64,000 nucleotides of DNA from an uncultured Pseudomonadota bacterium (GTDB taxonomy: Bacteria; Vulcanimicrobiota; Vulcanimicrobiia; Eremiobacterales; Eremiobacteraceae), in NCBI GenBank assembly GCA_963736005.1, contig CAVTNB010000001.1, positions 1,472,001-1,536,000 of the forward strand, written 5' to 3'. Positions 49,816 through 53,012 of the stretch are shown one piece after another (the first letter of the stretch is position 1; every line of letters begins with the position of its first letter). The position numbers were made by a program, and so were the translations under genes. The notes under the pieces were generated by a model. That model ran no database searches and was not told where the DNA came from. It saw only the letters and a list, made by a program, of their open reading frames with translations.

Positions 49816-50040
49816 CTAACTTTGAATCTCGCGCTGGAGCACGAGCATAAGCCTAGCAGCTGGTAGGCGCGGATCAGGCGTCATTCCACGTACTTGCCAT
49901 CCCTGCATTCCCAAGTGAAGTAGCTCTTGAAGGTCGTCTTGGTTGGAGCCGCTGCCAGATTGAGCGTCGGCATGGTTTGCCAGCACCGAGACGAATTGAA
50001 TTTCATAGCTCGTTCTCGCTGACTGAGTGATTGTTTGCAT
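49816..50040 (-). CDS. Small hypothetical protein (DUF4177-like)
   Basis: GAGGTGA RBS; LG.QGWQV, LQRE. Confidence 0.6.
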   Translation of the reverse strand: MQTITQSARTSYEIQFVSVLANHADAQSGSGSNQDDLQELLHLGMQGWQVRGMTPDPRLPAARLMLVLQREIQS

Positions 50041-50144
50041 CGTACGGTCACCTCTCTTCGATTAGCTTACCCTTCTAGCGACCGAAAGTAAACGTCCATA
50101 CCAGTCCCAGGCTAATCTAAGGAAAGGCGGCTAAACTTCCAGCT

Positions 50145-50711
50145 ATGAGACACTTGCTTTTCACGGTGTTCGCAACCGCCGTGATCGTTGTGCCCGCTGC
50201 GGTCCTAGCGGACACAAGCTTGAATCAACCCCCTGCGCAAATGGACGCTGGGTTCCAGTACATGCAGCAGGCGCACGCGAAAGTGCAGCAACTGCAAGCG
50301 CAAGCACGAGTAGCGGCGCTCAACGCGTTGAGTCCGGCTCACCGCAACCTGCTTGCGCAGATCGCGGGGCAACTAACGGTCTCGGCAAATCCAGACGTCA
50401 ATGCGGCCGCTCGTACGATTGACAATGCGCTGACCCAAACAGAAGGACGAAATATCTTGGGCATTTCCTCCGCGCTGCAGACACAATCGCAACAGGTAAT
50501 GGAAGCAGCTCGTCAACAAATGATGGCTGCCAATCCACAGGCGATGCCGCAAGGTGGTCCGGTCAAACGATCGGCAAACATGATGTACCACGGCAGCGAG
50601 ACCACAGATCCGGGGATGCTGCTGTTGCAAATGTCGATGGGTGTTGTCCAACCGGCCATGGGCACGTTCATGGTGAAATTCGCCGGTCCCGCGCCGCATT
50701 CGGGACCCTAA
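50145..50711 (+). CDS. Secreted helical hypothetical protein
   Basis: Signal peptide; ALSPAHR.LLA.IAG.L. Confidence 0.7.
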   Translation: MRHLLFTVFATAVIVVPAAVLADTSLNQPPAQMDAGFQYMQQAHAKVQQLQAQARVAALNALSPAHRNLLAQIAGQLTVSANPDVNAAARTIDNALTQTEGRNILGISSALQTQSQQVMEAARQQMMAANPQAMPQGGPVKRSANMMYHGSETTDPGMLLLQMSMGVVQPAMGTFMVKFAGPAPHSGP

Positions 50712-50883
50712 CCTGGTTTCGTCGTATACACGCAGTCGATGCAATAGTTGAACTGCGCCCGGACCAATCCTTAGAAAAAACTTGAGGGGAATTAGGCCTT
50801 AAGCATCAGCCCGAGCTTAACCCAGGCTTGCTAGAATGGTTTGAGCGCTGTCAGCGCCATTCTCACGAGGAGATATATCTCTC

Positions 50884-50988
50884 ATGTATACCAGTCCAAG
50901 AATCCTAGCATCAGTGGACCTCAAAACGACGATGGCGGATGCACTAGGGCAAAACTGCAGCGTTGTCGGCGTCCCCTGCGCAGAATAG
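50884..50988 (+). CDS. 34-aa peptide, putative RiPP/signalling precursor
   Basis: GAGGAG RBS; MYTSPRILASVDLKTTMADALGQNCSVVGVPCAE; terminator immediately downstream. Confidence 0.7.
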   Translation: MYTSPRILASVDLKTTMADALGQNCSVVGVPCAE

Positions 50989-50995
50989 TCGATCC

Positions 50996-51034
50996 AAAGG
51001 GAAGCAAGTATACGTTTGCTTCCCTTTTCTTTTT
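50996..51034 (+). terminator. Rho-independent terminator
   Basis: AAAGGGAAGCAA-GTATACGT-TTGCTTCCCTTT followed by TCTTTTT. Confidence 0.85.
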
Positions 51035-51112
51035 GCCTCGTAAACGTCTCGTAGCAATTTGTCAGCTTCGTCGCGTTTTTTCCTAAGGCTCAAACGCCGA
51101 CAAATTAAAGCC

Positions 51113-51185
51113 TACCCCCAAGGGAATTCGAATCCCTGTCCCCGCCTTGAAAGGGCGGTATCCTAGGCCTCTAGACGATGGGGGC
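51113..51185 (-). tRNA. tRNA-Glu(TTC)
   Basis: GCCCCCATCGTCTAGAGGCCTAGGATACCGCCCTTTCAAGGCGGGGACAGGGATTCGAATTCCCTTGGGGGTA. Confidence 0.97.
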
Positions 51186-51202
51186 ACAACAGCACGTTTG
51201 CG

Positions 51203-53012
<1,810 letters not shown>

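Follow-up and report, generated by a model that had tools for sequence, protein, structure and literature searches.

A 64,000-nucleotide stretch of an uncultured bacterial genome (the window; G000:C1:1472001-1536000, from an assembly of 2.84 Mb in 6 contigs that is 84% complete) carries a 34-codon open reading frame (ORF) on its + strand. The locus raises the question of whether so short an ORF is a gene at all and, if it is, how its product would be matured, with no maturation enzyme encoded inside the window, as an earlier note on this DNA had already remarked. Comparison with related sequences confirms that the ORF is a genuine gene and not a chance reading frame. Judged by their sequences, this peptide and its relatives are a dispersed, clade-specific family of precursors of ribosomally made peptides with post-translational modifications (RiPPs). 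The window ORF is probably an orphan RiPP precursor that would be matured in trans, by phosphorylation of a core serine and cleavage after Ala20-Leu21-Gly22, through enzymes of an operon elsewhere in the genome. The earlier note had proposed a stand-alone precursor gene of a dispersed family and a cut at this site, and its interpretation is partly supported overall.

Eight paralogs are encoded in G000, with a leader of the form MYxxPxIxAS(L/V)D...A-x-G followed by hypervariable cores containing Ser and Cys. Every one of the eight has a ribosome-binding site of the GGAG type at a similar distance, and each has its own hairpin and T-rich tail 37-70 nt past the stop, in unrelated genomic contexts. 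Among the 22 leader codons of the eight genes, the third position varies in 21, the first in 13 and the second in 10, and the invariant leader residues are encoded by two to four synonymous codons. For related strains, metagenome contigs of the sequencing runs X4 and X5 were compared. Codons 1-20 of the window ORF are unchanged in these contigs, and the changes inside the ORF include three synonymous substitutions (Leu21, Gly22 and Gly29) and one Asn24Thr replacement; in X4, the ~120 nt 5' of the ORF differ by 7 listed substitutions and 3 deletions.

The same taxonomic family is represented by 32 genomes, and a search with a profile of the eight copies found peptide genes in 13 of them (11/30 without the unpublished genomes G013 and G008). 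By genus the family is present in 3/3, 6/7, 2/2 and 1/2 genomes and in none of six other genera, and a phylum-wide sample contains it in 12 of 301 genomes, a tally that includes unpublished genomes. Two or three peptide genes form tandem arrays in G017, G003, G001 and G019. From the fetched loci, 42 distinct peptides were read; the 4 from G013 and G008 were omitted and the other 38 were aligned (alignment A2). Met1, Tyr2, Pro5, Ala9 and Asp12 are invariant in all 38 rows, Ile7, Ser10, Leu17 and Gly22 are conserved in at least 90%, and the leader consensus reads MYxTPKIIASLDAxxVLxEALG. Compared with 1.84 billion representative proteins, A2 gave 84 matches at E<=0.001, including 17 at E<=1e-10. 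Small peptides of 29-104 aa make up 83 of these matches, the remaining one being an unrelated protein of 1085 aa, and 81 of the 83 keep the YxxP leader, with P0065 and P0088 N-terminally variant or truncated. The homolog search thereby recovered the conserved leader and variable core that the earlier note had anticipated. Pfam and NCBIfam scans returned no family that matches the peptides.

Pooling and de-duplication, with two representatives lacking YxxP dropped, gave a set of 112 members whose cores are 5-27 aa long (median 12). Ser is present in 111 of the 112 cores, whereas Cys occurs in 93, at least two Cys in 71 and no Cys in 19, so that serine, and not the cysteine pair named in the earlier note, is the almost constant feature of the core. 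Most often, the first core Ser is residue 4 (30 members) or residue 3 (18 members) of the core, and the core type of the window peptide, CSx(V/A)...C, is the commonest (22/112). At the end of the leader, position -1 is Gly in 109 members and position -3 is Ala in 97 or Val in 10 (107/112 together); position -2 varies among Leu, Tyr, Val, Phe and others, with Thr in 0/112. Ala or Val at -3 combined with Gly at -1 fits the rule that type I signal peptidases cut after small residues. Double-glycine leader bacteriocins carry Gly-Gly, Gly-Ala or Gly-Ser at -2/-1; a leader of this kind was considered and rejected, Gly being found at -2 in 0/112 members.

Within the window, the gene forms the complete unit that had been described from the sequence, with an extended -10 box, a GAGGAG site, a 34-aa ORF and a terminator. 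Its features are as follows.

50806..50883, + strand: promoter and 5' untranslated region (UTR) block of the peptide cassette, common to the paralog at G000:C3:104607
50829..50837, + strand: extended -10-like box TGCTAGAAT, read from the sequence
50845..50857, + strand: GC-rich inverted repeat GCGCTGTCAGCGC in the 5' UTR, read from the sequence and from folds
50867..50872, + strand: putative ribosome-binding site GAGGAG, 11 nt 5' of the ATG, read from the sequence
50884..50988, + strand: 34-codon precursor gene (stop included), ORF MYTSPRILASVDLKTTMADALGQNCSVVGVPCAE
50884..50949, + strand: leader, residues 1-22, MYTSPRILASVDLKTTMADALG, with a YxxPxI motif of the type bound by RiPP recognition elements (RREs) and an A-L-G end
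50950..50985, + strand: core, residues 23-34, QNCSVVGVPCAE, of the commonest core type, CSx(V/A)...C
50996..51037, + strand: predicted intrinsic terminator, a 14-pair stem-loop followed by TCTTTTTGCC, from sequence and folding

The terminator stem-loop (50996-51027, followed by TCTTTTT) begins 7 nt past the stop of the peptide ORF; it folds at -20.1 kcal/mol with a z of -4.08, and 0 of 200 shuffled sequences folded equally well. At the 5' side, 50806-50921 and G000:C3:104528-104644 share 76% identity, and boxes of the form TGnTAnAAT stand at an equal distance in the C3, C1:267433 and C1:675280 paralogs. A two-hexamer promoter scan of 50000-52000 returned no site and no -35 match, so the promoter call rests on the extended -10 box. 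A similar box, TGCTATAAT, precedes the cluster-proximal precursors of the QNCS type in G003 and G001.

The enzymes that could act on these peptides are encoded ~523 kb from the window, at C1:995.5-999.8 kb (locus L015), in an operon that has one of the paralogs (C1:999766-999660, -) directly upstream on the same strand. Two of its products are HprK-like P-loop proteins (TIGR04352, E 6.4e-13 and 1.1e-9; scores of 48.4 and 37.8 bits, cut-off 200), both with an intact Walker A motif, SGIGKTT and STGGKST. In addition, the operon encodes an S26 signal-peptidase domain of archaeal type (TIGR02228, E 8e-8) that contains the motifs GSSMLP and VAHRV, a nucleotidyltransferase of the NTP_transf_5 type (PF14907, E 1.3e-25) and an 83-aa PqqD protein (G000:C1:995554-995808; L015:5555-5806, -). 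The latter matches PF05402 above the cut-off (E 8.5e-13), and its best NCBIfam match is TIGR04353 (32.9 bits against a cut-off of 35). Orthologues of the PqqD protein are present in 6 further clusters. Across the cluster proteins, the TIGR02228 matches (E 8e-8, 2e-6 and 5.5e-6) each fall short of the cut-off, and the Ser/His/Asp motifs of the S26 domain (GsSMxP, VAHR and GDA) are kept in 7/7. In G002, G004, G018 and G225, a single ORF of 503-583 aa encodes both the S26 and the PF14907 domain; a related-locus search with the G002 fusion returned G002 alone. A DrrA-like ATPase of the ATP-binding cassette (ABC) class and a PF16962 permease, of the 'ABC_export' type, are divergent to the operon, and an ABC-2 exporter pair is additional in the G003 and G047 clusters.

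The peptide genes and this operon occur together. An HprK-like protein is encoded in 12 of the 32 genomes of the taxonomic family (10/30 without G013 and G008), which are the peptide-positive genomes minus G046 (62% complete), and in 0 of 19 peptide-negative genomes; since kin are not independent, the co-occurrence is given without a statistic. In 11 of the 12 genomes (9/10 with G013 and G008 left out), the HprK-like gene has a same-strand peptide gene ~100-450 nt upstream of it, and in the twelfth, G001, the HprK-like gene begins its contig. Two kinase genes stand beside precursors in 10/12 genomes. Furthermore, the operon-adjacent precursors of G003, G001 and G017 include the core type of the window peptide, QNCSxV..C, and those of G001 and G003 carry its ASVD leader variant, with 63% and 56% identity, respectively, to the window peptide. 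A complex predicted from the PqqD alignment (A3) and the peptide alignment (A2) scored 0.49, as compared with 0.35 for the control, and is counted neither for nor against binding. A stand-alone PqqD gene in a paralog-bearing cluster fits the reading of YxxP as an RRE-binding motif, and the S26 domain in the same cluster fits the cleavage site, both of which the earlier note had suggested. The strongest PqqD match of the genome (C1:1902254) was also considered as the partner and was set aside, as it belongs to a pyrroloquinoline quinone (PQQ) operon (PqqB/C/D/E). That operon, at L079:7163-10138 (G000:C1:1901-1904 kb), is complete, with PqqB, PqqC, PqqD and a PqqE-like gene.

The gene content points to a route of maturation for the window peptide. 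The PqqD-type chaperone would bind the 22-residue leader via Tyr2 and Pro5 and would hand the peptide to the enzymes encoded by the same operon. One or both HprK-like kinases would then phosphorylate a core Ser, which in the window peptide would be Ser26 of the Cys-Ser pair, and the archaeal-type S26 (SipW-like) domain would cleave after Ala20-Leu21-Gly22. The PF14907 nucleotidyltransferase may decorate the phosphate further. Finally, the ABC transporters would export a product of ~12 residues, whose two Cys might then form a disulfide; a disulfide after export is our simplest guess for the Cys pair. The action of the operon in trans on the window copy is what we infer, and a signalling role of the product, which the earlier note thought possible, is conjectural.

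The enzyme set matches that of the linear polyphosphorylated peptide (LPP) pathway (lppA-K-B-S-D-N; Popov et al., Nat Commun 2026;17:6633, PMC13381572) and appears to be a variant of it. According to that paper, an HprK-like kinase poly-phosphorylates Ser3 of the LPP core, and a SipW-like peptidase with a Ser/His/Asp set removes the leader only upon presentation by the RRE; the authors describe the pathway as restricted to Bacillota and its role as unknown, and report that its nucleotidyltransferase was inactive on heterologous expression. Both systems have a precursor with an N-terminal YxxP motif for the RRE and a variable C-terminus (Tyr2 and Pro5 in 38/38 here), a discrete PqqD-like RRE gene in the cognate cluster (outside the window here), archaeal-type S26 (SipW-like) peptidase motifs together with an HprK-like kinase, a PF14907-type transferase and an exporter, and both are without a lasso cyclase. 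The core has an early Ser in either system, Ser3 in LPP and most often position 4 or 3 here. The differences are also evident. The characterised LPP core has 45 aa, in precursors of 35-200 aa, and one kinase acts on it, whereas the cores here have 5-27 aa, mostly with Cys, and two kinase paralogs are present. In relatives here, the peptidase is fused to the nucleotidyltransferase; the pump of LPP is MsbA-like, while the exporters here are of the ABC-2 and 'ABC_export' types. Up to 8 precursor genes are scattered over a genome here, and as compared with Bacillota, the host is a diderm that encodes LpxC and BamA. As set against the described LPP pathway, the diderm host, the short cores, the two kinases and the scattered precursors stand out. 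The earlier suggestion of an undescribed family accordingly stands for the peptides, for which databases hold no model, and falls for the enzymes, whose set is that of LPP. LppB was not among the sequence matches of the cluster PqqD chaperone in the PDB.

In NCBIfam, both kinases and the chaperone match best to the two families of the 'HPr-rel-A system' (TIGR04352, HprK-related kinase A; TIGR04353, PqqD chaperone), with all scores under the cut-off, and the NCBIfam library names no precursor family for that system. A literature search on HprK-related kinase, HPr-rel-A, TIGR04352 and PF14907 returned no relevant paper, and Popov et al. was the sole paper that the search found to join RiPP, signal peptidase, HprK and RRE. 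Phosphorylated lasso peptides of the paeninodin type, as PMC13381572 describes them (see also PMC8498205, PMC10368454 and PMC7533575), also combine an HprK-like kinase, a PF14907 transferase, a PqqD RRE and a [Y/W]xxP leader. Unlike in their clusters, neither a cyclase nor a B2 peptidase is encoded in the cluster here, and position -2 is never Thr; the product here is presumably linear or disulfide-closed.

If this assignment is correct, a RiPP pathway first published in 2026 as restricted to Bacillota extends to an uncultured lineage bearing lipopolysaccharide. Over 100 short substrates from nature, which follow a clear Ala-x-Gly rule for cleavage and nearly all contain a core Ser, make the specificity of kinase and peptidase directly testable. 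Up to eight scattered precursor genes appear to share a single biosynthetic operon, and cluster-based mining would miss such precursors; gene callers, moreover, often skip ORFs of 31-35 codons.

A 13-mer, GCGCGATGAGGCG, links most of these scattered genes to the operon. It occurs six times in the G000 genome, always before peptide genes or the HprK-like operon: five times 44-50 nt before a peptide ATG (C1:265295, 663422, 675280, 999766 and 1659879) and once ~55 nt before the first HprK-like gene (G000:C1:999389, -). In relatives' loci, it precedes 17 of 30 peptide genes. Its position before most paralogs and the HprK-like gene is taken as a sign of shared regulation. The 13-mer forms a hairpin, GGGCGC-GAUGAG-GCGCUC (P2), with a second hairpin of variable sequence (P1) 5' of it; over 23 cases of the element, the mean z is -2.2, with z below -1 in 19. 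In many folds, CUCUCC, an anti-Shine-Dalgarno sequence after the GAUGAG hairpin, is base-paired to the ribosome site. Across 22 UTRs, RNAalifold recovered the P2 hairpin alone, with weak covariation (a double change in one of six pairs); MAFFT misaligns P1, so that support for P1 rests on single-sequence folds. An Rfam search of the 5' UTRs of six paralog loci returned no match. The element is a candidate for a regulon-wide cis-regulatory RNA or operator and, if functional, would provide a handle on the timing of peptide production. In the window copy, the GCGCTGTCAGCGC repeat takes a position analogous to that of GCGCGATACGCGC in the C3 copy and to that of the GGGCGC-GAUGAG-GCGCUC hairpin in five other paralogs, and differs from both in sequence.

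A bolder reading, which we hold to be doubtful, combines this regulation with further chemistry. It takes the system as a distinct kinase-dependent RiPP branch and not as LPP with a different host, in which phospho-Ser made in short Cys-Ser cores by one HprK-like paralog would feed the second paralog and the peptidase-fused nucleotidyltransferase, and in which the scattered precursors and the operon would form one regulon under the structured 5' UTR element (P1 hairpin, P2 hairpin with the GAUGAG loop, and anti-Shine-Dalgarno sequence). Candidates for the later chemistry are a lanthionine-like ring, formed by elimination and addition of Cys, or a phosphodiester to a nucleotidyl or glycosyl group.

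Several observations weigh against phosphorylation and cleavage of the window peptide by the distant operon. The window copy is without the GCGCGATGAGGCG element that links five other paralogs to the operon, and G002 has no counterpart of its cassette (50711-51105) at the syntenic tRNA-enolase site, an absence from which the window cassette is taken to be a recent, dispensable copy. All enzyme matches of the operon lie under the curated NCBIfam cut-offs, and G000 encodes three further PqqD-type proteins. The nearest solved relative of the cluster PqqD is TbiB1, a lasso RRE (5v1u, 5v1v; E 1.4e-5 over residues 11-82); TbiB1 belongs to a complete lasso pathway, and the similarity is distant. The G000 gene for the S26-nucleotidyltransferase (L015:6623-7762, -) is split between its domains by one extra G, and the same-genus G002 has an uninterrupted ORF of 549 aa (L060:5313-6962, -). 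The extra base may reflect an error in the assembly, a natural split of the gene or its decay; in an assembly of 6 contigs that is 84% complete, indel errors are plausible. The LPP leader, YxxPxVLxHQxIxFETxxS, is cut after Thr(-1), whereas the leader here is MYxxPxIxASLD...A-x-G, of 22 aa. The Cys residues found in 93/112 cores are not accounted for by phosphorylation, and a search of sequencing runs for the window stretch found no RNA run carrying it.

Some of these points suit the view that the window copy, as a spare or decaying duplicate, escapes maturation, or that the family as a whole is just cleaved and exported as plain secreted peptides, unmodified. The missing cassette in G002 and the missing 5' UTR element favor a spare copy, as does one X4/X5 contig of depth 2.6 in which a 1-base insertion interrupts codon 33, and the inactivity of the LPP nucleotidyltransferase in a heterologous host, as reported in PMC13381572, would agree with an unmodified peptide. 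We regard this view as unlikely, given that the ORF, ribosome site, -10 box and terminator of the window copy are intact, that codons 1-20 are unchanged in related strains with mostly synonymous changes elsewhere in the ORF, and that two kinase genes are conserved beside precursors. Maturation through the Cys residues, by a thioether or other ring made by an enzyme unlinked to the HprK-like operon, such as a radical S-adenosylmethionine (SAM) enzyme, is quite unlikely. The 93 cores with Cys, 71 of them with two or more, the C-S...C frame kept in the commonest core type and the unexplained genes adjoining several orphan copies speak for such a ring. Yet the 19 kb loci around the 8 paralogs contain no radical-SAM/SPASM gene, the sole pair of PqqD and SPASM genes is that of the PQQ operon, the other radical-SAM genes are a lipoyl synthase and a lysine-aminomutase-like gene, and 19 members dispense with Cys where 111 have Ser. 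The radical-SAM route raised in the earlier note is thus unsupported, the linked enzymes being kinases and not thioether-forming; of the genes that the note listed for inspection near paralogs, PqqD RRE and S26 peptidase genes were found, and radical-SAM and asparagine-synthetase-like genes were not.

A lasso precursor, processed via the C2/C3 B2-like and PqqD-like proteins and an asparagine-synthetase-like cyclase, is very unlikely, in agreement with the earlier exclusion of this class. The YxxPxL type of the leader, the kinship of the cluster PqqD with TbiB1, and the two Transglut_core3/B2-like and two Asn_synthase genes of G000 lend it some appeal. Lasso precursors have a penultimate leader Thr and an acidic residue at core position 7-9 for the macrolactam, a pattern that the abstract of PMC10368454 gives as well. 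By comparison, Thr is absent from position -2 throughout the family, and the window core starts with Gln and has its sole acidic residue at position 12. Both Asn_synthase proteins pass the cut-off for asparagine synthase (429 and 447 bits against 267) and fail that for lasso cyclase (241 and 298 against 525), and the B2-like genes belong to glycosyltransferase loci that contain no peptide genes. In this genome, which is 84% complete, neither an Asn_synthase nor a Transglut_core3 gene was found near any of the 8 paralogs. Finally, there is almost no chance that the ORF is fortuitous and that the hairpin merely ends minus-strand tRNA transcription. The ORF is short, and the end of the tRNA-Glu gene lies 85 nt from the hairpin on the opposite strand; still, the T run is confined to the + strand, the stem being followed by GGATCG on the - strand, and each paralog has a terminator of its own in unrelated surroundings. 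Together with the 8 paralogs, the 112 members and the codon-level conservation, these data already contradict a chance ORF.

In the window, the gene has as neighbours an ORF of 188 aa with no family assignment (50145-50711, +), tRNA-Glu and tRNA-Met genes (-), and genes for enolase and nucleoside diphosphate kinase (-). An Rfam search over this region returned the two tRNAs and sub-threshold noise, and nothing else. The cassette sits at a synteny break, its flanks being 90% identical to segments that lie in three separate places in G002, and an X4 contig has the same cassette with different flanks. Two cassettes inside glycosyltransferase/sulfotransferase loci, L068 (G000:C2:30000-47000) and L069 (G000:C3:15000-28000), each contain an HprK_rel_A-like, a PqqD-like, a PF14907 and a lasso-B2-like transglutaminase gene, with no family peptide nearby; the S26-like domain of the C2 cassette is without the catalytic Ser and His. 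A DUF6065 gene and a gene resembling 2-oxoglutarate-Fe dioxygenases (PF10014) stand between two paralogs at L012:8296-10529 (G000:C1:265295-267528), and the second paralog is followed by a gene for an SBP_bac_5 peptide-binding protein. The pairing of a peptide gene with DUF6065 recurs in G047 (L045), and SBP_bac_5 adjoins a peptide gene in G019 (L025); the DUF6065, dioxygenase and SBP_bac_5 genes could serve accessory tailoring or uptake. DUF4760 genes lie within a few kb of several paralogs (L013, L014, L012 and L018; G000:C1:654-686 kb and relatives), a recurrence that may be due to chance.

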